DNA of 64,000 nucleotides from a virus (taxonomy: Duplodnaviria; Caudoviricetes), in IMG/VR virus record IMGVR_UViG_3300032312_001822, positions 1 through 64,000 of that record, one strand, 5' to 3'. A program made the translations under genes and the position numbers. Each line of letters opens with the position of its first letter. Position 1 is the first letter of the stretch. The notes under the pieces are model-generated. The model was not told the DNA's origin. It did not search any database and saw only the letters and a program-made list of their open reading frames with translations. This document shows positions 2,089-55,097 of the stretch, one piece after another.

Positions 2089-2706
2089 ATGGAAGACTTT
2101 TTTGAAGAACTAAAAAACCAACCAAGACCAAACATATTTAAAAGAATATTGATTTGGTGGAATCATGATGGTAAATACTTACATAAAGAAATTAAATGGG
2201 GTATTCAAAATCTTATTTACTGGTTTCCAATTATCTGGAAAGATAGAAATTGGGATGGACATTACATTTATGAAGTAATGAAACATAAATTGAAAGCTCA
2301 AGCCAATTATATTGGTCGTAGAGATTTTCATACACGAGCGCAACAAGATGCTCGTAATATGAGAACATGTGTTAAATTAATTCAATTATGTCAAGATGAG
2401 CCTTATTCAATGGAGTATATGGATTATCATAAAGACAGAGTTTGGTTTACACCTTGTGAGGATCGTGAAGGATCATCTTTATACAATTCAGAAGAAGTAT
2501 GGGAAAATTATGATGAGTTCTTTAAAAAGTATCCTTTAGTTTATAAGAGAGTATTAAAAGGTGAAGGCCCATTTAATCTAGATGGTAGAGATGAATCTGA
2601 AATGAAAAGAATTATAGCAATGAATATCGCACATCTAAATCAAGACAGAGCAAGAAAGTTGTTATTTAAAATAATGGAAGAAAATATTGAGGGTTGGTGG
2701 GATTAA
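2089..2706 (+). CDS. Hypothetical protein
   Basis: ORF track; 205 aa, Trp-rich; no family recognised. Confidence 0.75.
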   Translation: MEDFFEELKNQPRPNIFKRILIWWNHDGKYLHKEIKWGIQNLIYWFPIIWKDRNWDGHYIYEVMKHKLKAQANYIGRRDFHTRAQQDARNMRTCVKLIQLCQDEPYSMEYMDYHKDRVWFTPCEDREGSSLYNSEEVWENYDEFFKKYPLVYKRVLKGEGPFNLDGRDESEMKRIIAMNIAHLNQDRARKLLFKIMEENIEGWWD

Positions 2707-3179
2707 TTAAATACATACTTTTATTATTTACTGTACTTAGTTTCAGTCAGGAACATATCTTAATAGGTGATTCACAAACATACCTGTTAGCCCGACATTC
2801 AACTGAAATAAAGCGAATACCTAAATTATCTCAATCAGGTATAGGCGTAGTACAACTAATATATAAAGTGCGTTTATATCCGGTTTCTCCAAATGTTAAA
2901 AGTGTTTCTATTTGTATTGGAGTAAATGATGCTTATAAAGACAGAGGAATACAACAATTATTTATTAGACTTAAAAACACCTTCCCAAATGCTCACTTTT
3001 ATATTATACAAGGTTCATGGGGTTGGGGTAAGGTAAGAAGAATGAATCAAAGTAATCTAGACAAGTATTACAAACACTTCCCAGGTACTATAATATATCC
3101 AGCAATTGGAAAAGGAGACCCACATAGGAATAAAAAAGTTTACAAAACTATAATGAAGAGTTTGGAAAACCAAATATAG
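2694..3179 (+). CDS. SGNH/GDSL-like hydrolase, secreted
   Basis: IGDSQ (block I) and IGVND (block III); PHR near the C-terminus; N-terminal signal-like segment. Confidence 0.6.
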   Translation: MVGLIKYILLLFTVLSFSQEHILIGDSQTYLLARHSTEIKRIPKLSQSGIGVVQLIYKVRLYPVSPNVKSVSICIGVNDAYKDRGIQQLFIRLKNTFPNAHFYIIQGSWGWGKVRRMNQSNLDKYYKHFPGTIIYPAIGKGDPHRNKKVYKTIMKSLENQI

Positions 3180-3190
3180 TTTCATATATT
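3161..3190 (+). promoter_or_regulatory. Early-type promoter of the DIP1984-like gene
   Basis: TTTGG at 3161 and CATATATT at 3183, the same 22-nt offset as the array promoters. Confidence 0.7.
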
Positions 3191-3217: not shown

Positions 3218-3646
3218 ATGAATGTATCTCAAGCATTAAAGAAAAAAAACAAATTAGCTATTGAATTAAAAAAACAATACGCTATCGCTCAAAAGTTTAA
3301 CTCTCAAGAAGCTGGTAACCCAAGACGTTATTCAGTACAAGCAGCTTTAGATAAAGCAGCTGAAATCACTGCTGAGTTAATTGATTTAAAAACGAAAATT
3401 CACTTGGCAAACGCGCCTGTGTATTCTAAAATATTCCGTATGGCGGAATTAAAAGGAAGAATCAAGGAATTGAAAAAAGTACCTACAGATGAAGGTAAAC
3501 ATGAGGGTAGATATGGTTCAGCCCCATCAGAAAAAGAAGTTGAAATCAACATTGCCCAATTGGATGGGTTTGTGGCGACATTAGAAGCATCAATTGAAGA
3601 AATTCAATCAGAATTAGACGTACATAACGCTACGACTACAATATAA
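3218..3646 (+). CDS. DIP1984-like coiled-coil protein
   Basis: All-helical 142 aa with family pattern M.v.qAL...kL ... LktkIhlaN ... IQseLDvhNatTtI. Confidence 0.7.
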   Translation: MNVSQALKKKNKLAIELKKQYAIAQKFNSQEAGNPRRYSVQAALDKAAEITAELIDLKTKIHLANAPVYSKIFRMAELKGRIKELKKVPTDEGKHEGRYGSAPSEKEVEINIAQLDGFVATLEASIEEIQSELDVHNATTTI

Positions 3647-3648
3647 TT

Positions 3649-3847
3649 TAAGGGTAAGGGAGTGATGATAAGATAGTATTCGAGGGTTCTTACAACTTTA
3701 CTGACAGCCAACCAGGGTGATAAGTGATAATGAATACGAAAATCAATCCTCAACATCTCAACACATCAACAATCGCGCACGTTCAATAAATTCAACATTC
3801 TTTGAAACCGGGATCTAGAATATTGTTTTTGATTTACTCCCCCTTAT
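3649..3847 (+). ncRNA. Putative structured ncRNA with UCAA repeats
   Basis: Ends pair (taagggtaagggagt 3649-3663 with actcccccttat 3836-3847). Inner stem gtattc/gaatac. TCAA at 3743, 3750, 3758, 3766, 3783 and 3792. No ORF. Confidence 0.6.
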
Positions 3848-3862
3848 TTTAAAATTTAAATT

Positions 3863-3955
3863 ATGAAGTACTTTATAATATGGTTAGGTTACGAATTCAT
3901 TAGACCTAAATTAATTTGGTTGTGGTATTACTTAATAAATAAAGGAGAAAAATAA
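3863..3955 (+). CDS. 30-aa hydrophobic microprotein (not in ORF track)
   Basis: MKYFIIWLGYEFIRPKLIWLWYYLINKGEK*; A-rich start; the stop abuts the next ATG. Confidence 0.5.
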   Translation: MKYFIIWLGYEFIRPKLIWLWYYLINKGEK

Positions 3956-3956
3956 A

Positions 3957-4673
3957 ATGAGAATTACAGTATTATCAGACACACATACAAGACATGGATT
4001 GATTCCTATGGAAGATTTACCAGGTGGTGATTTGATACTTCATGCTGGAGATATAATGAACTCAGGTTACAATAAAAATGACATTCATGATTTTTGTACT
4101 TGGTTTCATTCACTTGATCAATATCAAGATAAAGTATTTATAGCAGGTAATCATGATAGAATGTTTGAAAATCATCCATTAGAAGCTAATACTATTGTTA
4201 ATAATTATGGTAGTGTGATTTATCTACAAGATGATGATTTAGTTTTATATGGAGATGGTCCAAATGGAGACTCTCCTCAAGACAACATTCGCATTTACGG
4301 ATCACCTTGGCAACCAGAATTCTATTCATGGGCATTCAATTTAAAAAGAAATGGAATTGAGATATCAGGTAAATGGGAAGCAATTCCTGACAACACAGAC
4401 ATTTTAATTACACATGGTCCATCATTTGGAACTTTAGATACAGTAACAGGAAGACCTTGGGATAATTTAGGATGTGAATTATTGGCTGAAAGAATTGAGA
4501 GACTAAGGCCAAAGATTCATATATGCGGACATATTCATTCAGGATATGGGTATGAGTTTAAAGATGGTACTCACTTTTTCAACGCTGCTGTATTGAATGA
4601 AAGTTATGAGTACACTCAAAAACCAATGACATTTGATTGGGATAAAGAAACAAATACAATAAAATTTATTTAA
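3957..4673 (+). CDS. Calcineurin-like metallophosphoesterase
   Basis: Motifs SDTH, HAGD, GNHD, THGP and GHIH. Confidence 0.9.
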   Translation: MRITVLSDTHTRHGLIPMEDLPGGDLILHAGDIMNSGYNKNDIHDFCTWFHSLDQYQDKVFIAGNHDRMFENHPLEANTIVNNYGSVIYLQDDDLVLYGDGPNGDSPQDNIRIYGSPWQPEFYSWAFNLKRNGIEISGKWEAIPDNTDILITHGPSFGTLDTVTGRPWDNLGCELLAERIERLRPKIHICGHIHSGYGYEFKDGTHFFNAAVLNESYEYTQKPMTFDWDKETNTIKFI

Positions 4674-41379: not shown

Positions 41380-41556
41380 ATGAAAACTGTACAATTTACC
41401 TTACAAGAAAGATGGGCTGCTTCAAAGCATATGGTTCAAAAATCTAAAAAAACTTACACTAGAAAAGATAAACATAAAAACAAGGACCATAAAGGTCCTT
41501 CTTTTATTGTAATGTTTGGCTCTCCGGGGTATGCTTCGTATATTAAATCATATTAA
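41380..41556 (+). CDS. ArfA/BrfA-like alternative ribosome-rescue factor candidate (not in ORF track)
   Basis: MKTVQFTLQERWAASKHMVQKSKKTYTRKDKHKNKDHKGPSFIVMFGSPGYASYIKSY*; VxKSKK..YxRKxKH motif; has its own promoter and an internal terminator. Confidence 0.55.
   Translation: MKTVQFTLQERWAASKHMVQKSKKTYTRKDKHKNKDHKGPSFIVMFGSPGYASYIKSY
41482..41508 (+). terminator. Intrinsic terminator inside the ArfA-like ORF
   Basis: aaggacc-ataaa-ggtcctt followed by cttttatt. Confidence 0.7.
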
Positions 41557-41575
41557 TAATTAAAAATAAAATGTT

Positions 41576-42313
41576 ATGACAAATCAAGAAACACAATTAG
41601 AATTAGATTTCGGAATGTTAACAGTTGCTCAACAGGAGCGTGTTGACTCATTTATTCAAAACCAAAAAAATATTATTCAAAATAATATTAAAAATAGTAA
41701 TGCTATTGAAATATTATTAAATGAAGGTGGTTTTATTAAAGGTGTTGATTATGAAAACACTATTAAAACTAAAATTGTAACAGAAGTAAAAGAATTTTAT
41801 TGTGATGGTAATTTTAAAACTGATATTACTTATGAAACAGTAGATGGTAATATTTCAATTTTATATAAAAAATATGATTCTAGAGAAAATAAAATTGTAA
41901 CTCAAAAATCATATGTTGGTAAAGAATTAAATAAACTTCAATGTAGTTCTATCACCCCACAATATAGAGCTTACAAACCGAAATCATTATATGAAAAACT
42001 ATTAGAAAATAATAGTAAAGCTCAAAATGAGTATGATAGTGCTAATCGTGAAAAAGCTGTTATTAATTATACTATTGAAAAATACAAAAATTTATTTCCA
42101 AAAGCTGAAATTACAGTAGGTAAAGATTACTATAAAAATTATAGAAGTAATTATATTGAATTTCCAATTGTAATGGTTAAATTTGAAAGTGGTTCATACA
42201 TTAGCTTCAGAATGGGTTTTAAAATTGATGAAGAAGTTGTTTATAAAAAACATGATGCAGTTGCTTCTCAATTAAGCCCAATTGAAATATTAAATATTTT
42301 TAACCAACAATAA
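41576..42313 (+). CDS. Hypothetical cassette protein
   Basis: ORF track; 245 aa. Confidence 0.8.
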   Translation: MTNQETQLELDFGMLTVAQQERVDSFIQNQKNIIQNNIKNSNAIEILLNEGGFIKGVDYENTIKTKIVTEVKEFYCDGNFKTDITYETVDGNISILYKKYDSRENKIVTQKSYVGKELNKLQCSSITPQYRAYKPKSLYEKLLENNSKAQNEYDSANREKAVINYTIEKYKNLFPKAEITVGKDYYKNYRSNYIEFPIVMVKFESGSYISFRMGFKIDEEVVYKKHDAVASQLSPIEILNIFNQQ

Positions 42314-42599
42314 AGTTTGGCTCCCCTAAATTAAATTCGTATATTAAAGTATAATAATAAAAAATATAAATGTTATGACACAAGTAGAAGAAGTAGTTAA
42401 AATTATTGAAAAAAATAAAAATTTAAAAACCAATGAACTAATTTGGTTACCAGAAGTAAAAAAATATAATTTACCAACTTCTACCATTTTAGTATTAATA
42501 GAGGAAGTAAGAAAAAGTGACTTAAAGTAAAGTTTGGCTCCCCTAAATTGATTTCGTATATTAAAGTATAATAATAAAAAATATAAATGTTATGACACA
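42311..42599 (+). repeat. 72-bp direct repeat pair (70/72 identical) flanking one microgene
   Basis: Copies at 42311-42382 and 42528-42599; each runs from the upstream TAA to ATGACACA. Confidence 0.9.
42375..42530 (+). CDS. 51-aa cassette protein (not in ORF track)
   Basis: MTQVEEVVKIIEKNKNL...VRKSDLK*. Confidence 0.7.
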   Translation: MTQVEEVVKIIEKNKNLKTNELIWLPEVKKYNLPTSTILVLIEEVRKSDLK

Positions 42600-43392
42600 G
42601 TTAAAAAAATTATCAAGAGAGGAGTTAAAATCATTAGCACCTCAAGTATTCAATCATCAAGTTAGTTCTAAGTTAACTGACAAGTATGTTCACATTCCAA
42701 CTGATACTATAGTTGAAGATATGGAAAAGTTAGGTTGGTTCCCATATCAAGTGAAAACAGTTAAGGCTAGAAAATCATCAGGCGCAATGGGTAAACACTT
42801 AATTCAGTTTTTTAATCCTGAAATTGTTATTAATAATGAAGCAGGTGAAGCTGATTTATTCCCAAATTTATTATTAATTAATTCACATGACGGTTCTACT
42901 TCAGTAAGATTTGAAATGGGAGTATTCAGATTAGTATGTGAAAATGGTTTAGTAATTAAATCAAAAGATTTTGGAGGTTTCAAAATGAGACATATGGGTT
43001 ATAATTTTGAAGATTTAAGAACCCATATTAGTTCTTTAGTTAAAACATTACCTGATGTAGTTGATAATTTGAATAAATTCTCTCAAGTAATTATGACACC
43101 TGAGCAACAAAATGAATTTGCAAATAAGGCAATTGAAGCTAGGTTTAATGAAGAAAAAACATTACCTCAAAGTGAAATTGATTATTTATTAACACCTGAA
43201 CGTAAAGAAGATAAAGGTGACAATTTATGGGTTGTACTAAATCGTGTACAAGAAAAATTAACTCAAGGGGGTTTTGGTTATTTAAACGCCAAGGGTAAAT
43301 TAAGAAAAACAAGAGCTGTTAAAAACTTTACAATGGATACTGAAATGAATATGAAGTTATGGGAAATTGCTGAAGAGTATTTAGTTAACTAA
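42592..43392 (+). CDS. DUF932 family protein
   Basis: KYVHIPT, LLINSHDGS, FRLVCENG, NLWVVLNRVQE pattern. Confidence 0.8.
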   Translation: MTQLKKLSREELKSLAPQVFNHQVSSKLTDKYVHIPTDTIVEDMEKLGWFPYQVKTVKARKSSGAMGKHLIQFFNPEIVINNEAGEADLFPNLLLINSHDGSTSVRFEMGVFRLVCENGLVIKSKDFGGFKMRHMGYNFEDLRTHISSLVKTLPDVVDNLNKFSQVIMTPEQQNEFANKAIEARFNEEKTLPQSEIDYLLTPERKEDKGDNLWVVLNRVQEKLTQGGFGYLNAKGKLRKTRAVKNFTMDTEMNMKLWEIAEEYLVN

Positions 43393-43397
43393 AATTA

Positions 43398-43416
43398 AGG
43401 GGAGCTTGGCTCCCCT
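43398..43416 (+). terminator. Hairpin overlapping the promoter -33 element
   Basis: aggggagc-ttg-gctcccct. Confidence 0.55.
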
Positions 43417-43453
43417 AATATAAAATCGTATATTAAGTTAAATAAGATAAAAA

Positions 43454-43612
43454 ATGGAAATAATTGTATTACAATTTTCTTTATGTGGGTTAAATTTATT
43501 CGCGGCCAAAGCAACAAAAGATAGAGGTAGAAACCCAGCTTTTAGTTACTTTGTAGCAGGAATGACTTTTGGTTTTGGGGTTGCAAGATTAATTGAATTA
43601 CTATTAAAATAA
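43454..43612 (+). CDS. 52-aa two-TM cassette protein (not in ORF track)
   Basis: MEIIVLQFSLCGLNLFAAKATKDRGRNPAFSYFVAGMTFGFGVARLIELLLK*. Confidence 0.6.
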   Translation: MEIIVLQFSLCGLNLFAAKATKDRGRNPAFSYFVAGMTFGFGVARLIELLLK

Positions 43613-43617
43613 ATAAG

Positions 43618-43806
43618 ATGACATTAACCCCAATTCAAAAATTAAGAGAAGATATTAGAAGCTTTGATTCAGGTTTGTACTTAGGAGTATTATCTTTATT
43701 AGTTGAAGCAGAAGGTCAAGAGAAAGTATTCTTGGAAAAAGTTTATAACGAACCCAAAACAACTGAGTTTGAAGAATATTATAAACAGTTTGGAAAACCT
43801 AAATAG
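43618..43806 (+). CDS. Hypothetical protein
   Basis: ORF track. Confidence 0.6.
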   Translation: MTLTPIQKLREDIRSFDSGLYLGVLSLLVEAEGQEKVFLEKVYNEPKTTEFEEYYKQFGKPK

Positions 43807-43846
43807 GATTCGTATATTAAAGTATAATAATTAAAAATAGAGAGTT

Positions 43847-44035
43847 ATGATATTACAAGTAATTAATACTAAAAAGGAAAAGTTCAATCAAATTAGAACA
43901 ACTAAAGAAAATTTATTTGCTGATTTAAAATTTCAAGGTTGGCATGTACAAGATTGCAAAATAAGTGAATTAAAAGAAGAATTAGTTCACACATTGTACA
44001 GAAGTGCAGATGGTAAAAACACTAGTACAAGATAA
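43847..44035 (+). CDS. Hypothetical cassette protein
   Basis: ORF track; GTTATG start. Confidence 0.7.
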   Translation: MILQVINTKKEKFNQIRTTKENLFADLKFQGWHVQDCKISELKEELVHTLYRSADGKNTSTR

Positions 44036-44043
44036 AAACAAAG

Positions 44044-44145
44044 AGTCAGGAGTCCATTGGTTGGAAGCACCTCCCCAAGGTTAAGTAACATTAAGGCTGA
44101 CTTTTAATGGCAAAGCTGGAGTAGGTTCAAATCCTACCCTGACTT
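44044..44145 (+). ncRNA. tRNA-like RNA with non-canonical core
   Basis: Acceptor stem agtcagg/cctgact; T arm gtagg-ttcaaat-cctac; D-like arm tcca-ttggt-tgga; 55-nt interior with no canonical anticodon loop; no encoded CCA. Confidence 0.65.
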
Positions 44146-44146
44146 C

Positions 44147-44218
44147 TAATAAATGCCTCATAACCATTTATTATTTTTAATTATCGAAAAAGAGCCTAAC
44201 AGAAATGTTAGGCTTTTT
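44147..44218 (+). ncRNA. Putative antisense sRNA 1 (anti-start hairpin plus terminator)
   Basis: taataaatg-cctcataac-catttatta hairpin, then tttttaattat, then terminator agcctaaca-gaaa-tgttaggct-tttt. Confidence 0.55.
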
Positions 44219-44263
44219 GGGTTTAACTTCGTATATTAGGGCATAATTAAAAATTAATATGTT

Positions 44264-44539
44264 ATGAAAAACGAGAAAGTAGGTTACAGTAGAGAAGCAA
44301 TGATTAAGTTTCTAAAAATTGAAGGTGTTTATGTTATTGGAACAACTGAAGAATTTTCAGGTCAAGAAGGTGGAATTTGGGTTGGGGGTGAAGAAATGGA
44401 TGATTTATTTGAATATTATAATAATAGTTCTAAATTCACATTTGGAGTAGAGAAAAAATTAAACGAAGCTGTTAATAAAAGAGGGTGGTGGTTTAGTTGG
44501 AATGATCCGGGTACAATGATGGTGTGGCCAATTAATTAA
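44264..44539 (+). CDS. Hypothetical cassette protein
   Basis: ORF track; RGWWFSWNDPGT motif. Confidence 0.75.
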   Translation: MKNEKVGYSREAMIKFLKIEGVYVIGTTEEFSGQEGGIWVGGEEMDDLFEYYNNSSKFTFGVEKKLNEAVNKRGWWFSWNDPGTMMVWPIN

Positions 44540-44596
44540 AATTTGGCCCCCCTAAATTGAATTCGTATATTAAAGTATAATTAAAAATTAAATGTT

Positions 44597-44809
44597 ATGA
44601 AAATTATTAAAGTTACAAGTTTATCTGATAAAAAATCAGTTTATCTAAATGTTGAAGCCATAGGACACTTTTACACAGTGCCTGAAAAAAGAGATTATGG
44701 TAGAGTTGAAAAAGTAGAACATACTAGAATTGGAGTTACAACCCACAATAATGGAGGGTTTGAAATAACTGAAACCCCTGAAATGTTAATTAAACTAATT
44801 AATAATTAA
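44597..44809 (+). CDS. Hypothetical cassette protein
   Basis: ORF track; YLNVEAI..EITETPE pattern. Confidence 0.7.
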   Translation: MKIIKVTSLSDKKSVYLNVEAIGHFYTVPEKRDYGRVEKVEHTRIGVTTHNNGGFEITETPEMLIKLINN

Positions 44810-44865
44810 TTGGCTTCTAAATATTAAATTCGTATATTATAGTATAATTAAAAATATAAAAAGTT

Positions 44866-45621
44866 ATGAAAAACATTGAAACATTAAATCAGGAAATTGT
44901 AAAGTTAGAAGAACAAAAAACAAATTTCTTAAATTTAGAACAAGATTTAAAAGATGCAAGATCTAATATCTATGTTAGAGAACAACAAGCATTGAGTGAT
45001 TCTTTATTACCATTTTTTGAAAATTTTAAATATGGTGTTAATATTGAAGTTAAAAGAGACTCTATTTATTTTAAAACTGATCACCCTGATTACACTTATC
45101 AAAAAGAATTATTTAGTATTTATTTAAGAGAAAGATACTCAAGTGAGGGTAAAAAATATGATGGGGCTGATTTATCTTATTACACAACTTCTACTAAAGG
45201 AGAAAATACTTGGGAGTTAAAAAGATTACAATTATTAGGAAGAGTAGCTGAAATTTTAGAAGACCAACAAGGACTTATTGTTGATACAGCTAATGATGTT
45301 TCAAATAAATTCAAAGAAGAATTTAATGAAGTTTATGGTAAAATGGGTGTTGTTGGAAATTCTATTAGAGACTTAAATAACCAAATTAGAGAAATCCAAA
45401 AACAAGTAAAAAGAATTGAATTATTTGGAGAAGGAATCCAATTTGAAAAATCAAGATGCATTACTTTGAAACATAATTATGAACCAAGAGTTGTATCTTT
45501 AAAATTAATTGAAGTTTCTAAATCAGGTAAAAAAGCAACTGCTGTATTTGAGTGGGAGAAAGGAAGAGAATCAAGAGAAGAAGGTGTAAATGTTGAAAAA
45601 ATCATTTACCAAGTTATATAA
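44866..45621 (+). CDS. Coiled-coil hypothetical cassette protein
   Basis: ORF track; 251 aa. Confidence 0.8.
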   Translation: MKNIETLNQEIVKLEEQKTNFLNLEQDLKDARSNIYVREQQALSDSLLPFFENFKYGVNIEVKRDSIYFKTDHPDYTYQKELFSIYLRERYSSEGKKYDGADLSYYTTSTKGENTWELKRLQLLGRVAEILEDQQGLIVDTANDVSNKFKEEFNEVYGKMGVVGNSIRDLNNQIREIQKQVKRIELFGEGIQFEKSRCITLKHNYEPRVVSLKLIEVSKSGKKATAVFEWEKGRESREEGVNVEKIIYQVI

Positions 45622-45683
45622 GTGCCTCATAACCACTTATTATTTTAATTATATTTTGTTAAAGCTCCTTATTAAGGGGCTTT
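45618..45683 (+). ncRNA. Putative antisense sRNA 2 (anti-start hairpin plus hairpin)
   Basis: ataagtg-cctcataac-cacttat hairpin, then tattttaattat, then aaagctcctt-att-aaggggcttt. Confidence 0.55.
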
Positions 45684-45736
45684 GGCTTTCTAAATTATAA
45701 TTCGTATATTTAAGTATAATTAAAAAATAAAATGTT

Positions 45737-45973
45737 ATGATGAGTTTTAAATTGCAAGATGAAGCAAATGGGTCTTTTAAAATATTTGATTTAAGACAAG
45801 CTATAGGTAGAGAATTTAGTGATAATCACTCTCCAACTTTAAGGAGTAAATTATTAGAAGTAAGTGATTGTGGGAATGTTTGTACTGTAATTAGTGTAGA
45901 AGCCTATAATAAACAAGGGGGTAAAGTAAGTAAACAACCTTCTTATTTAACTTGGAATGCCTTATTTTATTAA
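45737..45973 (+). CDS. Hypothetical cassette protein
   Basis: ORF track. Confidence 0.7.
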   Translation: MMSFKLQDEANGSFKIFDLRQAIGREFSDNHSPTLRSKLLEVSDCGNVCTVISVEAYNKQGGKVSKQPSYLTWNALFY

Positions 45974-46030
45974 AATTTGGCTTTTATAGGTCAGCTTCGT
46001 ATATTAAAGTATAATTAAAAATTAAATGTT

Positions 46031-46156
46031 ATGAAAAAAATAGTATTGTTAGGAGTTATTTATTGGGAAGTAGAAATTGGAGGGGTAACTCATATGTCAT
46101 TCAACCCTCAAGAATTAGTTGTAAAAATGGCCTCAATGGGTTTAAGTTTAAATTAA
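46031..46156 (+). CDS. 41-aa cassette protein (not in ORF track)
   Basis: MKKIVLLGVIYWEVEIGG...MGLSLN*. Confidence 0.6.
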   Translation: MKKIVLLGVIYWEVEIGGVTHMSFNPQELVVKMASMGLSLN

Positions 46157-46168
46157 AAATATAAAGTT

Positions 46169-46387
46169 ATGAGTTTACATTCAGTTTACATATGTGAAGA
46201 TTTTGAAATTGGTAATGGTATTTTAACTATTTGGGATGCCAAAGAAGTAGCTAAGGTAAAAGATATAGATGGTTTTAATAGAATTAATGAAATTCTAATT
46301 TCTGAAACGGGAGTATTACCTAATGGAATTATATGTCCTAATTTATTTCATAATTCTGGATTTTTTGATATTATACTTTTTGAATAA
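46169..46387 (+). CDS. Hypothetical cassette protein
   Basis: ORF track; cassette-type start region without its own promoter. Confidence 0.7.
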   Translation: MSLHSVYICEDFEIGNGILTIWDAKEVAKVKDIDGFNRINEILISETGVLPNGIICPNLFHNSGFFDIILFE

Positions 46388-46444
46388 TATTTGGCTTTTA
46401 TAAGTCAGCTTCGTATATTAGGGTATAATTAAAAATATAAAGTT

Positions 46445-46747
46445 ATGACAAAGAAAGAAAGATTAAGATTAAATACAGTTCATGTAATTGAAATGGTACA
46501 AAAGAATTTTGAAGTAAGTACTGATTTTTGTGATGATGAAGGTCATGGTTATTTTACTTTTGGGGTAATGAAAGATGGAGTAGAATACTTATTTGATTTA
46601 AGTAGAAGAGATTTTAGTGTTATTATCCATAAAATAAGAGGTGAAAAAGATTATGAAATTGGAGCTGATTTGGAGGCTGAATTAGAAAGATTTATTTTCT
46701 TAGAATTAGAAATTTCAAACGCCCGTATTGATAATATGATTAAATAA
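46445..46747 (+). CDS. Hypothetical cassette protein
   Basis: ORF track. Confidence 0.7.
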   Translation: MTKKERLRLNTVHVIEMVQKNFEVSTDFCDDEGHGYFTFGVMKDGVEYLFDLSRRDFSVIIHKIRGEKDYEIGADLEAELERFIFLELEISNARIDNMIK

Positions 46748-46812
46748 TATAATTTGGCTTTATTAAATTAAATTCGTATATTATAGTATAATAATTAAAA
46801 ATATAAAATGTT

Positions 46813-47178
46813 ATGGCAACAAGATCAAGAATCGGAATCGAAAATGAAAATGGTACAATTAGTTCAATTTATTGTCATGGGGATGGTTACCCAGATGGTG
46901 TAGGGGCAACTTTAGAAGAACATTACTCCAATAGACAAAAATTAAGAATGTTAATCAATTTAGGTGACATTAGTATTTTAGGAGAACATGTAGCAACAAT
47001 GGATGAACACTCTTTTGATAATAGAAAAGAAGGTGTTACAGTAGCTTACCATAGAGATAGAGGTGAAGAAAAACGAGAAGCAAGAGAAGATAGCTCATTA
47101 GATTCATTTTTAAAATCCGGATATGAACAATATGGTTATGTTTATACTAAGGATGAAAAATGGGTAATGTTTGAATAA
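46813..47178 (+). CDS. Conserved phage early protein of unknown function
   Basis: MATRSRIG..SIYCHGDGYP..GVG..L..HY, a widespread phage family pattern. Confidence 0.75.
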   Translation: MATRSRIGIENENGTISSIYCHGDGYPDGVGATLEEHYSNRQKLRMLINLGDISILGEHVATMDEHSFDNRKEGVTVAYHRDRGEEKREAREDSSLDSFLKSGYEQYGYVYTKDEKWVMFE

Positions 47179-47184
47179 TAAAAA

Positions 47185-47198
47185 GGGGCTTCGGCCCC
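47185..47198 (+). terminator. c(UUCG)g hairpin
   Basis: ggggc-ttcg-gcccc after the stop codon; weak + strand U tract. Confidence 0.55.
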
Positions 47199-47260
47199 CA
47201 TATTATTTGGCTCCTATATATATATTTCGTATATTATAGTATAATTAAAAATATAGAGTT

Positions 47261-47434
47261 ATGACACAAGAAGAAATGAATACCGAAAATGCTTTAGTAA
47301 ATGAGAAATATGAAGTGATTAGAAAATTAGATGCTTACTTACATATTGAGTCTTTTAATAGAACTAAATTAACAAGTGAAATGTTAAAGGAGTTAAGAGG
47401 TAAAATTGACGAAATGTTATTATCCGATTTTTAA
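47261..47434 (+). CDS. 57-aa cassette protein (not in ORF track)
   Basis: MTQEEMNTENAL...EMLLSDF*. Confidence 0.65.
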   Translation: MTQEEMNTENALVNEKYEVIRKLDAYLHIESFNRTKLTSEMLKELRGKIDEMLLSDF

Positions 47435-47493
47435 TATTTGGCTTTTAAGATTATTATTCGTATATTAAGGTATAATTAAAAAGATAAATTGTT

Positions 47494-47715
47494 ATGAAAG
47501 TAAAAGATTTAATTAAGTTTTTAAGTGAACAAGATCAAAATTTAGAAGTAGTTATTAAATATATTGATCCTTCAAATTGGAATTATGAATTACCTTTAAG
47601 AGCTCAAGATGTTTATGTGGACGAAGTATTTGAGGTGGATGAAGCTAATTTAGAAGAGGGTCAATCTATTGAATCAGGGGATGAGTGTTTGGTAATTGAA
47701 TTAAGTTTTGAATAA
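47494..47715 (+). CDS. Acidic cassette protein
   Basis: MKVKDLIKFL..DQNLEVV, a common phage small-protein pattern. Confidence 0.7.
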   Translation: MKVKDLIKFLSEQDQNLEVVIKYIDPSNWNYELPLRAQDVYVDEVFEVDEANLEEGQSIESGDECLVIELSFE

Positions 47716-47721
47716 CATATT

Positions 47722-47826
47722 ATGAAAGAGAAATTATATATTGTTGATGGATTTGAAATATGGGCGGATAGTGAAGCCGGGGCTATTGAAAAATATAGAT
47801 TATGGTGTTTACCATGTTGGGATTAA
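47722..47826 (+). CDS. 34-aa protein (not in ORF track)
   Basis: MKEKLYIVDGFEIWADSEAGAIEKYRLWCLPCWD*; the stop abuts the next promoter. Confidence 0.55.
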   Translation: MKEKLYIVDGFEIWADSEAGAIEKYRLWCLPCWD

Positions 47827-47886
47827 TATTTGGCTTTTAAAATTATATTTCGTATATTATAGTATAATAATTAAAAATAATATGTT

Positions 47887-48063
47887 ATGGAAAGTAGATT
47901 TGGTATTGAATTAGAGGTATTAGAAAAAGCATTACAAAATATGATCAGTGAAGGTTATATGGGTAAAGATGATACAATTGAAGATTTAGAAGATTTAGCT
48001 TATACATCTTGTGAAGGATTAGCTTGGTACGCCAAATCTAAAATATATGATTGGGCAAATTAA
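47887..48063 (+). CDS. 58-aa cassette protein (not in ORF track)
   Basis: MESRFGIELEV...IYDWAN*. Confidence 0.65.
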   Translation: MESRFGIELEVLEKALQNMISEGYMGKDDTIEDLEDLAYTSCEGLAWYAKSKIYDWAN

Positions 48064-48122
48064 TATTTGGCCTTTAAAAATATTATTCGTATATTAAGGT
48101 ATAATTAAAAAGATAAATTGTT

Positions 48123-48290
48123 ATGGAAAATCAAGTTACAGAATTAGAGTTAATGTTCATTAGGTTAGAAAGATTAGAATTACAATTAGTGGAAAACGAT
48201 GTAATAGAAGATGGAGACATGATAAGTGAAGCATTGGGTGAATTGAAAGAGAGATTGTATGACAAAATAAGAGAAGTGAGCAACGAATAA
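48123..48290 (+). CDS. 55-aa acidic cassette protein (not in ORF track)
   Basis: MENQVTELELMF...IREVSNE*. Confidence 0.65.
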   Translation: MENQVTELELMFIRLERLELQLVENDVIEDGDMISEALGELKERLYDKIREVSNE

Positions 48291-48757
48291 AATTCAGTAT
48301 ATGAAACCAATAATATTCTATCATACGGAGAAAGAGACATGGGTAAAAGTAGATGAAATACTCACCGGGGAAACGATCATTTCCTCACCCGTTTCACCCC
48401 TCACATAATGTGACAAATTGGAATTAATATACCCTAACAAGTAATGGGATATGGATATTGGGATATAGGGATAGTATAGTATGTGGAAAATAGATTATAT
48501 GGGATGTGGAGATACTAGGGCAGGGTACGTGACTTCATTGAGGTGGAAGGCCAAGCCTTACTCGAACAGAGGAGTATATACCTTACCCTAAATAATGTTT
48601 TAAAACGCTGATTATACCCTGAAAAATAAATGTTAAAATGTTTGGCTTAGTTAAAAAGGTTTTATAAATTAAATTAAAAAAGGGTTTTAAACGCTGCCAT
48701 GTTGTGAACCTAAAGTAGACGCGGCCCCACTCCCCCGGGGCCCCTACTTAAATTTTG
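48291..48757 (+). other. Non-coding region with repeats, palindromes and G/C-biased tracts
   Basis: No + strand ORF. GGATAT-like repeats at 48446-48475, TCACA-TAA-TGTGA, duplicated ttttaaa(a)cgctg, and a GC-rich hairpin at 48718-48748. Confidence 0.5.
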
Positions 48758-48814
48758 TTTGGCTATTGGAAAATTGCTTCGTATATTATAGCATAATTAA
48801 AAAAATAAAACGTT

Positions 48815-49102
48815 ATGACAAAGCAAGAATTTTTATCGGGTAAGTGTTTTACAATTGGGGCTCCGACTTATAAGGGTGCTAACACCTATAGCTATTATAA
48901 AAGTGATAGGAATGAGGGTTGTATAATGAGACAATCAAGATCATCATTAGACAATAGAATAGTATTAAATGATTATGAGTGTAACGCTCCAACAGTGGGG
49001 TCAAAATCGTTTACTGGATTTACTTACGTAATGAAAAAGAAAGTAGTGGTTAAATACAGGTTTGAGGACCTAATATTGTTTGAGGAAACTGTAGGGGAGT
49101 AA
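48815..49102 (+). CDS. Hypothetical cassette protein
   Basis: ORF track. Confidence 0.7.
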   Translation: MTKQEFLSGKCFTIGAPTYKGANTYSYYKSDRNEGCIMRQSRSSLDNRIVLNDYECNAPTVGSKSFTGFTYVMKKKVVVKYRFEDLILFEETVGE

Positions 49103-49136
49103 ATCCCCTGCATAGTTATAGAGAAAATCTATAGCA

Positions 49137-49370
49137 ATGAACATAACTAAACAACTAAGTGGGTTAAGCACCCGTCTAAACGAATTACTTGAGGATATGG
49201 ACCGAATAATGGACTATATCGATAATGACGAATTATATAACGAGATAGACAATAATGTCAAATCTCAGCTGGAAAACGCAGTTACGCACCTAGATATCGC
49301 AGTTGACGACCTTAATGACGGAATGTATGAAGATACGCCCGTGGACGAAGAAGATTTAGATTGGGATTAG
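49137..49370 (+). CDS. Acidic helical hypothetical protein
   Basis: ORF track. Confidence 0.65.
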   Translation: MNITKQLSGLSTRLNELLEDMDRIMDYIDNDELYNEIDNNVKSQLENAVTHLDIAVDDLNDGMYEDTPVDEEDLDWD

Positions 49371-49711
49371 AAAAGAATGATTTTGTATCCTTACAGTTCG
49401 GACCCGTTCGGTAATGGATTAAAAACGTATAGCCACGCGTCGTTGCTGTCCATCGACGGATCCGCGGGATCACAGGACAAGATTATGGTGATAAGAGATC
49501 GAAAACACTCTTTACCCAACCCCCTTGTATATACAAATATATATGAGTTTCAAATAACCCCTTTGATATAAGATTCATAAGGGTTAAAAAAAGAGATCTT
49601 AAAAAGATTTTACCAAATAAAAAAGTATATACAAAATAAATGGGGAGTGGTTTGGCTTCCCAATTTCTGTTTCGTATATTGTTACATAATAATAATAAAA
49701 ACAAATAGGTT

Positions 49712-51229: not shown

Positions 51230-51521
51230 TTTTGAGAATTTTTTAATTTCCCAAATGGAAGAAGTTATGAATTCATTTACTTCTAATCTAGAAGGAATTC
51301 TTGAAGGTGAAAATGAAATTCCACAAAATCAAAAAGAAGATATTTTAAAAGACTTATTAGATATAGTAGAAACTATTTCTCCTTATCAAGGTGTATTAGG
51401 ACCACAATTAAAGGATAAAATCAACTATATTAAACACTTATTAGACACTTCAAACGATATACATGAGGGTGAAGAGCACCCACTTAATACCACATCTTTA
51501 TCAGATATTCAAGAAAATTAA
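51213..51521 (+). CDS. Acidic hypothetical protein
   Basis: ORF track. Confidence 0.6.
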   Translation: MIMSNNFENFLISQMEEVMNSFTSNLEGILEGENEIPQNQKEDILKDLLDIVETISPYQGVLGPQLKDKINYIKHLLDTSNDIHEGEEHPLNTTSLSDIQEN

Positions 51522-51624
51522 CCTCTTTTGAAGACTTCACACAAAAGGCTTGGCTTGCAGTTTTTAATTTATTATATTAGGAGCACGGAAGAAGATAAAA
51601 CTATAATATATAAAAGATAGAAAA

Positions 51625-54193: not shown

Positions 54194-55097
54194 TTTACAA
54201 ACCACTGTATCTAGTAATTCTAAAGGAGGAGGAAGTAGTGGTAATACTTTTTTCTTTGCTAGAGTTAATGATATTTTATTATCAACTAATACTGTAACTG
54301 AAAATTTTTTTAATGATGCAGGTGGTTGGTCAGGGTTAGGTTCTATTAAGTTTACTCAATTAGGAACTACTACTGATGATGATAAACCCTCTCAATTAAT
54401 TGCAAAACCACTTTTTACTAATATAATACAATATCCTATTTTACAAGAAATTGTATTAATTTTACAAGCACCTTCTGATGGTTTAAATTCTGACCCTCAA
54501 TCTAAAACTTATTATTATTTAACTACTATAGGTTTATGGAATAGTATTCACCATAATGCTTTCCCTGATATACTTAATTTTAATAAAAAAATTAATAAAA
54601 AGAATGATAATTCTATTCAGCAAGTAGAAGAAGGTAGTACAACATCAACCTCTCCTAATACTGATGTTTTAAAATTTGGTAATTCTTTTAAAGAAAAATC
54701 AGGTATTAGAACATTACTTCCAGAAGAGGGAGATATTATGGTTGAAGGAAGATGGGGACAATCTATTAGATTTTCATCAACAACAGCTAAGAAATTACCA
54801 ACTAATTCATGGAGTGCTCAGGGTGAATTAGGATCACCTATTACTATTATACGTAATGGGCAAACTAAAGAGCAAAACACCTCAGCACCATGGGTTCCAA
54901 TTTACGAAGATATTAATAAAGATGGATCCTCAATTTATATGTCATCAGGTCAAGATATACCTTTAGAACTTGCTTCTAAAAATTTAAAATCTTTTGATAT
55001 AACTGTAGGAGCAGCATTTAATTCTGCATTACAAATTCCTGATCCGTTTTTCCCATCACCTGATATTTCACCTAAACAAGCAGATAATCTTAAATAA
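54174..55097 (+). CDS. Baseplate hub/spike-associated protein (gp5-like)
   Basis: LPEEGDIMVEGRWGQSIRF, EDINKDGSSIY; baseplate context. Confidence 0.55.
   Translation: MSSLYPSLQTTVSSNSKGGGSSGNTFFFARVNDILLSTNTVTENFFNDAGGWSGLGSIKFTQLGTTTDDDKPSQLIAKPLFTNIIQYPILQEIVLILQAPSDGLNSDPQSKTYYYLTTIGLWNSIHHNAFPDILNFNKKINKKNDNSIQQVEEGSTTSTSPNTDVLKFGNSFKEKSGIRTLLPEEGDIMVEGRWGQSIRFSSTTAKKLPTNSWSAQGELGSPITIIRNGQTKEQNTSAPWVPIYEDINKDGSSIYMSSGQDIPLELASKNLKSFDITVGAAFNSALQIPDPFFPSPDISPKQADNLK

Follow-up and report, generated by a model that had tools for sequence, protein, structure and literature searches.

A conserved structured RNA encoded directly behind a DIP1984-like phage gene, and a possible link of the pair to RNA damage

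Introduction

The IMG/VR record IMGVR_UViG_3300032312_001822 (Caudoviricetes; 90.6 kb, approximately 55% complete) is related to members of the genus Immutovirus, which are Flavobacterium phages. Its first 64 kb (64,000 nucleotides, nt), referred to below as the window, contain a gene for a 142-aa protein that is directly followed by about 200 nt of non-coding DNA. This arrangement raises the question of whether the gene and the stretch behind it belong together and, if so, what such a pair might do. A preliminary description, made from the sequence of the window, had called the protein DIP1984-like and the stretch an RNA closed by its own ends, with six UCAA repeats; it proposed that protein and RNA form a ribonucleoprotein, such as an RNA-templated oligomer, a sponge or an RNA antitoxin, made from its own promoter. 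Here we report a comparative analysis of this locus and of its relatives in viruses and bacteria.

Results

The RNA is conserved and tied to the gene

Loci encoding homologues of the protein were collected from viral (38), metagenome (80) and genome (40) sources; where necessary, single loci are designated by L numbers. In all lineages, even at protein identities as low as 33–45%, a non-coding stretch of 160–260 nt begins within a few bases of the stop codon; its two ends form a strong duplex although the sequences of the arms differ completely. The RNA starts 1–10 nt past the stop codon in nearly every locus examined and always lies on the strand of the gene. It was found behind the gene in (i) phage contigs, (ii) Arcicella, (iii) a Chlorobiota metagenome-assembled genome (MAG) and (iv) GC-rich Verrucomicrobia-type contigs. 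Across 53 representative loci, the first open reading frame (ORF) of at least 70 aa beyond the RNA begins at least 188 nt past the stop codon; the script disregarded ORFs that overlap the first 180 nt.

An alignment-free comparison of the arms gave −29.5 kcal/mol for cognate and −18.5 kcal/mol for non-cognate pairs in the same search (p = 6e-16), with 29 of the 34 cognate pairs beating all four of their non-cognates. Since stems become misaligned when broad sets are aligned with MAFFT, RNAalifold returned no structure for such sets, and a covariance model was therefore started from a narrow seed. The resulting full-length model, R1, was built from 13 close sequences; in 36 of 37 sources (E ≤ 0.05) it gave a full-length, same-strand match right behind the gene. 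Analysis of the R1 alignment revealed that 86% of the cells are paired, compared with 58% in shuffles (none of 500 reached 86%) and 37–48% in slid controls. Changes on both sides were found in 38 of the 39 pairs, i.e. they are compensatory, and G-U pairs are common; these pair counts are somewhat inflated, because a covariance-model alignment is fitted to the structure. The margin over the controls is large and agrees with the alignment-free arm test.

A second, sequence-only model of the conserved core (R2, 53 sequences) recovered loci outside its seed, namely L020 (1e-6), L029 (2e-9) and L131 (8e-5); L131 is one of the Arcicella loci, which also include L136 (2e-4) and the isolate A. aurantiaca (0.05). 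Neither R1 nor R2 reached the GC-rich Verrucomicrobia-type contigs, which are linked to the others by architecture alone: their RNAs share the closing helix, 5' hairpins, a GAU block, a (G/U)CAA row and a U-run, and the GAU block pairs back onto the start of the (G/U)CAA row.

Within the whole 90.6-kb record R1 detected a single copy of the RNA, at the place given in Table 1. Two weak additional matches (51482–51532, E 0.24; 54908–54989, E 0.87) were taken as chance. The predicted minimum free energy of the RNA is −46.2 kcal/mol (z = −2.55). A search of the whole window against Rfam 15 at the gathering threshold left the RNA without a match, and when positions 3500–4000 were searched at E ≤ 10, the five weak matches obtained all fell outside 3647–3863. 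The literature was searched as well, and no paper describing the RNA or the gene-RNA pair was found. We conclude that the stretch at 3647–3850 is a genuine conserved structured RNA, genetically locked to the gene.

Table 1. Features of the gene-RNA locus (positions in the window)
Feature	Position	Strand	Details
Phage promoter-type motif TTTGG-N17-CATATATT	3161–3190	+	28 nt upstream of the ATG
Gene of the 142-aa DIP1984/DUF6847-like helical protein (P0001)	3218–3646	+	stop codon TAA
Conserved structured non-coding RNA	3647–3850	+	covariance-model match 3649–3848 (R1, 201 bits)
Closing helices P1 and P2, 5' strands	3649–3653, 3658–3665	+	partners 3842–3846, 3834–3841; every pair covaries
UGAU, 5' side of a symmetric 4x4 internal loop	3666–3669	+	partner UGAU 3830–3833
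P3 and P4, 5' strands	3670–3681, 3685–3689	+	partners 3818–3829, 3810–3815; helices 3–5 covary; P3 has 12 bp
5' domain, P5	3690–3727	+	3690–3693 pairs with 3724–3727 (RNAalifold on alignment A3)
GAU-repeat block (GUGAUAAGUGAUAAUGAA)	3716–3735	+	contains two of three TGATAA copies; GAU x3 kept family-wide
G-poor tract with six UCAA units	3742–3800	+	units at 3743, 3750, 3758, 3766, 3783, 3792
3' hairpin UUCAA 3782–3786 / UUGAA 3802–3806	3782–3806	+	loop 3787–3801
3' strands of P4–P1, then U-rich tail (UUAUUUUAAAAUUU)	3810–3850	+	

Architecture of the RNA and its repeats

As shown in Table 1, the RNA is closed by two covarying helices, P1 and P2, in line with the paired ends noted in the preliminary description. 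Every coordinate given in that description was correct. An inner stem between gtattc (3676) and gaatac (3732) fared less well: the two words are present and complementary, but the family pairs 3670–3681 with 3818–3829. The inner stem, although possible in the sequence of the window, is at best an alternative pairing confined to the closest relatives.

Above P2 lies a symmetric internal loop, UGAU/UGAU, in which GA is conserved on both strands at a level of at least 70% (36 sequences); it probably contains tandem G-A pairs, a pairing geometry that we infer. The 5' domain corresponds to helices 6–8 of the covariance alignment, of which helix 8 is 94% paired, and a small hairpin (3701–3703 with 3713–3715) with an AGCCA-type loop is enclosed by P5. 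TGATAA occurs at 3666, 3718 and 3725, and the logo of the GAU unit is uGAUaa. The 3' hairpin (helix 9) is 85.5% paired, with double changes in all five pairs; UCAAA/UUUGA is replaced by UUAAAA/UUUUAA in other lineages.

The contrast in composition between the two halves is as previously described: G content is 27% in the 5' half (3647–3740) and 7% in 3741–3810. Six TCAA copies in the tract compare with 1.96 ± 1.2 in 2000 dinucleotide shuffles, nine of which reached six, and in the whole 64 kb a 60-nt window with six TCAA is unique to this tract. Across the family the RNAs carry five to seven UCAA units, most often separated by 7 nt (41 cases), 9 nt (27) or 8 nt (21), or by double steps of 14–17 nt (31). 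The unit logo is aa(u)UCAAaa(n)U, with U at position +7 in 70% of 267 units. The locus of a canonical DIP1984 gene (L166) also has a long non-coding tail with a terminator, but the unit in it is a different one, CAC, in exact 7-nt steps.

A box C/D-like motif, GUGAUGA, is present at 3662–3668, with a 3' partner UUGAU in the window and CUGA in some relatives. Membership of the box C/D class, which calls for a C box RUGAUGA and a D box CUGA in an asymmetric kink-turn beside the terminal stem, was not assigned, given the symmetric 4x4 loop and the absence of a partner protein. The three snoRNA-family matches found by Rfam in 3500–4000 all lie outside 3647–3863 and far below the threshold.

Hairpins reminiscent of parts of tRNAs were observed in some relatives. 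The Verrucomicrobia-type RNAs of L141, L151–L154 and L157–L159 contain, approximately 70–115 nt from their start, two anticodon-arm-like 5' hairpins with 5–6-bp stems and 7-nt loops of the type CU-NNN-AA; the middle bases are UCA, CUG, CCA or UGA in one hairpin and GAA or GAU in the other, and the genes beside these RNAs are tRNA-Phe(GAA) and, in some loci, also tRNA-Ile(GAU). T-arm-like hairpins were seen in two GC-rich RNAs, i.e. in L150 (3519–3533, UUGG-UUCGAAU-CCAA) and in L166 (2041–2058, GUGGG-UUCGAUC-CCCAC), and the L166 tail gave a weak tRNA-Sec-like Rfam match (E 0.15). To judge from their sequences, these T-arm-like hairpins hint at a tRNA-like module as in YrlA, which the RNA of the window lacks.

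Remote homology of the protein to the DIP1984/DUF6847 family

The description of the protein as DIP1984-like holds as remote homology. The window protein matched the NCBIfam profile NF038048 (DIP1984 family) with 14.8 bits (E 0.023), short of the curated cut-off of 70 bits, which was cleared by none of the genome matches tested. The alignment is colinear from end to end (residues 4–137 against positions 3–144 of the 149 in the profile), and all of 13 diverse relatives matched the same profile, the best with E 9.4e-8. An AlphaFold (AF2) model based on the alignment of homologues (mean confidence, pLDDT, 91.8) has four helices and a beta hairpin. Its outstanding structural match is PDB 3KDQ, a crystal structure of a Corynebacterium diphtheriae protein with no assigned function: Foldseek gave template-modelling scores of 0.83/0.77 (probability 1.00), and VIA gave Z 13.2 with a root-mean-square deviation of 2.2 Å over 140 of 142 residues, the next match having Z 8.7. 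The other structural matches were generic helical bundles.

The product of ORF 3218–3646 thus shares with DIP1984/DUF6847 (NF038048, PF20935) a length of about 145 aa, a colinear end-to-end alignment and the four-helix plus beta-hairpin fold and, as judged by profile and predicted structure, is a remote member of this family. The window protein has no Pfam or PHROGs match; a score of 14.8 bits against a cut-off of 70, together with the lack of a Pfam match, places it in a divergent phage clade. A PDB sequence and profile search returned only coiled-coil noise, and PADLOC only weak coiled-coil noise (LmuB).

A profile search of 1.84 billion representatives retrieved 1722 clusters (50% identity) at E ≤ 1e-3, nearly all of them stand-alone proteins of 140–150 aa. 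The protein alignment has 31 invariant positions, many of which are Lys, His, Asn or Tyr. In a language-model atlas the window protein lies among DUF6847 clusters and hypothetical proteins from viruses. One cluster carries the automatic name 'putative septicolysin', a label that we treat as unsupported, since it occurs only as an annotation in papers on Acinetobacter plasmids. A tblastn search of GenBank phages gave one match only, in an uncultured megaphage. Phage T5 (NC_005859) yielded no match to NF038048 and none to the A1 profile.

Genomic neighbourhoods of the pair

Analysis of the related loci revealed that the pair recurs in tRNA gene arrays and beside genes of RNA repair. Co-oriented tRNA genes, identified with ARAGORN, flank 39 of 154 loci, many of them in arrays of 9–17 genes. 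A tRNA-Phe gene lies directly behind the RNA in nine Verrucomicrobia-type loci, its start being 243–299 nt past the stop codon; in one group of Bacteroidota phages the gene that follows is for tRNA-Ser(UGA). As to RNA repair, Pfam scans of the neighbours placed an RNA ligase 61 nt upstream in L055 and likewise found one in L067 and L076. RtcB is encoded behind the RNA in L141 and L153. In L150, a 102-kb Verrucomicrobiia contig, a divergent rtcR is followed by a sigma-54 promoter, the gene, the RNA and then rtcB; the promoter is of textbook sigma-54 type (TGGCAC-N5-TTGC) and lies 26 nt ahead of the ATG.

HsdR (L133, Arcicella) and McrBC (L146) were also detected among the neighbours. In Saprospiraceae and Chitinophagales loci an AAA_14/DUF4143 ATPase (L145) or McrBC (L146) is encoded downstream of the pair, and these flanking genes suggest a defence-island setting in some bacteria.

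The NF038048 cut-off was cleared in only one of the 301 Bacteroidota genomes sampled; hence, the pair behaves as an accessory, mobile module. This single canonical DIP1984 gene (L166) lies directly downstream of the 3' end of a tRNA gene (1380–1425), and genomic islands are often sited directly behind tRNA gene 3' ends.

Transcription and genomic setting in the window

In Immutovirus the slot between a 205-aa gene and the phosphoesterase gene contains only an 84-codon ORF. The same slot of the window contains a 161-aa ORF (2694–3179), the 142-aa ORF and then 310 nt ahead of the phosphoesterase gene (3957–4673), which has 75% nucleotide identity with its counterpart in those phages. Since the Immutovirus slot has nothing beyond the 84-codon ORF, the gene and the RNA form, on this comparison of sequences, a cassette that is an accessory insertion.

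The pattern TTTGG-N17-CRTATATT has 19 matches on the + strand of the window (e.g. within 41515–49680), and none in 100 shuffles; it looks like the promoter class of this phage itself. The copy ahead of the gene (Table 1) bears out the earlier suggestion of an own promoter, and no such motif is present between the gene and the RNA. Runs of U5–U8 directly follow the closing helix in L126, L132, L135, L138 and L150, and L020, L029 and L032 have a separate terminator hairpin behind the RNA. With a promoter motif before the gene, none before the RNA, and a U-run or terminator at its end, the RNA most likely makes up the 3' end of the transcript of the gene itself.

Three further ORFs flank the cassette. 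The 161-aa ORF upstream (+ strand) has a TTG start and a signal-peptide-like N-terminus and gave no Pfam, NCBIfam or PHROG match; the corresponding place in L007 and L008, two close relatives, is taken by ORFs of 161 and 170 aa, but other genes lie upstream in more distant loci, which places the 161-aa ORF outside the gene-RNA pair. The 310 nt ahead of position 3957 contain no + strand ORF of 40 aa or more. A 30-codon ORF is present there, between the RNA and the phosphoesterase gene (3863–3955, + strand, MKYFIIWLGYEFIRPKLIWLWYYLINKGEK); it is hydrophobic and rich in Trp and Tyr, ends 2 bases ahead of the next ATG (3957), has a near-identical frame in the relative L004 and, from its sequence, may encode a small membrane protein missed by ORF cut-offs. 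The gene directly behind the cassette (+ strand) encodes a calcineurin-like metallophosphoesterase. In some RNA-repair systems enzymes of the calcineurin-like phosphoesterase class heal 2',3'-cyclic phosphate RNA ends; a link of this gene to the pair is conjectural, since its family accounts for only two of 77 neighbour proteins in related loci.

Discussion

A putative protein-RNA particle

The arrangement described above is consistent with a single transcription unit, in which the phage promoter at 3161–3190 would drive both the protein gene and, at the 3' end of the transcript, the RNA of about 200 nt, which would fold on itself there. Protein and RNA may then assemble into a ribonucleoprotein, with the long closing helix and its UGAU/UGAU loop serving as a stable handle and the G-poor row of UCAA units, set 7–9 nt apart, offering several equivalent sites for copies of the protein. 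Such a particle might take part, together with RNA ligases, in the handling of RNA damage, with cut tRNA as the most likely substrate, and would correspond in function to Ro60 with its Y RNA; the suggested role follows from the recurrence of the pair in tRNA arrays and beside RNA ligase, RtcB and RtcR. The proposal of such a ribonucleoprotein, for which direct binding, stoichiometry and a role in RNA or tRNA damage are all conjectured from sequence and analogy, has in our judgement an even chance of being correct; that the UCAA units are binding sites for the protein is likewise something we infer.

Several observations weigh against this proposal, in addition to the inflated pair counts already mentioned. 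In the structure given by the covariance model, the unit at 3783 lies in the 5' strand of the 3' hairpin and that at 3792 in its loop, and the predicted unpaired probability of the UCAA units is only modestly raised (0.51, compared with 0.43 elsewhere). The window fragment has no tRNA, tmRNA, RNA ligase or RtcB gene (ARAGORN detected no tRNA or tmRNA in the whole record either); by Immutovirus synteny, the start of the contig falls just downstream of the expected position of the tRNA cluster. RNA-repair neighbours occur in a minority of the loci, and most neighbours are unrelated small ORFs. Moreover, the dense tRNA arrays indicate that many of the 'MAG' loci are probably phage contigs, and the firm cellular cases are few (the Arcicella aurantiaca isolate, and L150 with its rtcR).

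Among known systems, a close parallel is Ro60 with its Y RNAs (Yrn1, YrlA/YrlB), which also combine a protein with a structured RNA of about 100–200 nt whose ends form a long helix. Cut tRNAs induce the Salmonella operon rtcR / rsr-yrlBA-rtcBA (Hughes et al. 2020, PMC7790460), and the slot of the pair in L150, between rtcR and rtcB behind a sigma-54 promoter, is that of rsr and the Y RNAs in Salmonella (PMC7790460). The gene-RNA pair also resembles Ro60/Y RNA in its presence in phages near tRNA genes. The molecules themselves differ: the window protein is predicted to be a four-helix bundle, with no TROVE/vWA ring and no Pfam family, the window RNA has no tRNA-like module, and Y RNAs have no heptad-repeat tract. 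The Rfam Y RNA and YrlA models found no match in 3647–3863, in the L150 tail or in the L166 tail.

The row of short units at a fixed spacing recalls two RNA-binding proteins of Bacillus subtilis, HutP on hut mRNA and TRAP on the trp leader, in which each subunit of a homo-oligomer binds one of a series of regularly spaced single-stranded units (NAG every 7 nt in the case of HutP). Their folds are unrelated to that of the window protein and their targets are cis-acting attenuation leaders, not closed 3'-end RNAs; for the window protein an oligomer is only proposed. Structured phage RNAs without an assigned function are also known in or beside tRNA clusters (RNAs C and D of T4, GOLLD and ROOL). 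These have other sizes and are not known to have a dedicated partner protein gene, and no Rfam match connects them with the RNA of the window. Rfam likewise gave no match to CsrB/RsmZ or 6S, and the unit repeated here is UCAA in a G-poor tract, not a GGA loop; ARAGORN assigned the RNA no tRNA or tmRNA identity.

A more far-reaching version of the particle proposal is that the heptad-repeat RNA is a ruler for the polymerisation of the DIP1984-fold protein, that in bacteria the pair stands in for Ro60/Y RNA as the first element of RtcB operons under RtcR control, and that the copies carried by large phages in their tRNA arrays sense, shield or present cut tRNAs against host anticodon nucleases. 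We put this forward tentatively, as a possibility that is more probably wrong than right.

Alternative explanations

Four other explanations were considered and ranked in the order of decoy, cis-acting 3' untranslated region (UTR), type III-like pair and DNA element. According to the first, the UCAA heptads titrate a host factor with affinity for, or nuclease activity on, single-stranded RNA (an anticodon nuclease, for example, or a different ribonuclease), and the protein merely protects or presents the RNA. The units, aa(u)UCAAaa, do resemble U33 followed by a CAA or UAA anticodon and A37-A38, and the pair has tRNA genes and RNA ligases of phages as neighbours, which are the classic means of countering anticodon nucleases; the two Verrucomicrobia-type hairpins with 7-nt CU-NNN-AA loops point the same way, and a competitive-inhibitor role has been proposed for the tRNA-like part of YrlA (Hughes et al., PMC7790460). 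However, the unit differs by clade (UCAA here, CAC in L166) while the gene stays, which is better explained by co-evolution of the RNA with its own protein. A decoy would also make less sense inside the cell's own RtcR-controlled repair operon, and no nuclease target can be named. We therefore regard a decoy as unlikely.

The RNA could instead act purely in cis, as a 3' UTR that terminates the transcript, shields the mRNA from 3' exonucleases or mediates autorepression by the protein, with no function in trans. Its position 1–10 nt past the stop codon means that a terminating ribosome must melt P1 and P2, a U-run follows the closing helix in many lineages, and no promoter motif separates the gene from the RNA. 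A terminator or stabiliser would hardly need about 200 nt, at least nine covarying helices and loop nucleotides that are invariant across the family, and several lineages add a separate canonical terminator, which makes a purely cis-acting element quite unlikely.

A type III-like toxin-antitoxin or abortive infection system, in which a multivalent RNA neutralises a harmful helical protein, shares with ToxIN, CptIN and TenpIN the vicinity of a protein gene and a repeat-bearing RNA on phages and mobile elements. The patchy distribution of the pair (one of 301 Bacteroidota genomes at the NF038048 cut-off), the islands beside HsdR (L133) and McrBC (L146), and the database label 'putative septicolysin', itself unsupported, would also fit. 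The features that define type III systems were not found: their repeats are of about 36 nt, form pseudoknots, lie upstream of the toxin gene behind a terminator and are processed by the endoribonuclease toxin, whereas the RNA of the window lies downstream and its units measure 7–9 nt. The window protein gave no Pfam or PADLOC family match, including none to a ToxN/AbiQ-type endoribonuclease. The tRNA arrays and the RNA ligase, RtcB and RtcR genes point to the handling of RNA damage, and the antitoxin role envisaged in the preliminary description was abandoned as very improbable. Finally, a DNA-level element (iterons, a partition or a recombination site) would account for short direct repeats at regular spacing, but is scarcely credible for a sequence in which compensatory changes keep long-range helices, frequent G-U pairs work on one strand only, the orientation relative to the gene never varies and a terminator lies behind.

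Implications

The gene-RNA pair is large, widespread and previously uncatalogued, and it recurs both in freshwater phages that are abundant and in RNA-repair operons of bacteria. If the protein-RNA particle proposed here is real, it would provide a function for DUF6847/DIP1984, a family for which a structure, but no role, has been available since 2009. It would also represent a second, unrelated solution to the problem addressed by Ro60 and Y RNA, and a new participant in the contest of phages and hosts over tRNA cleavage.

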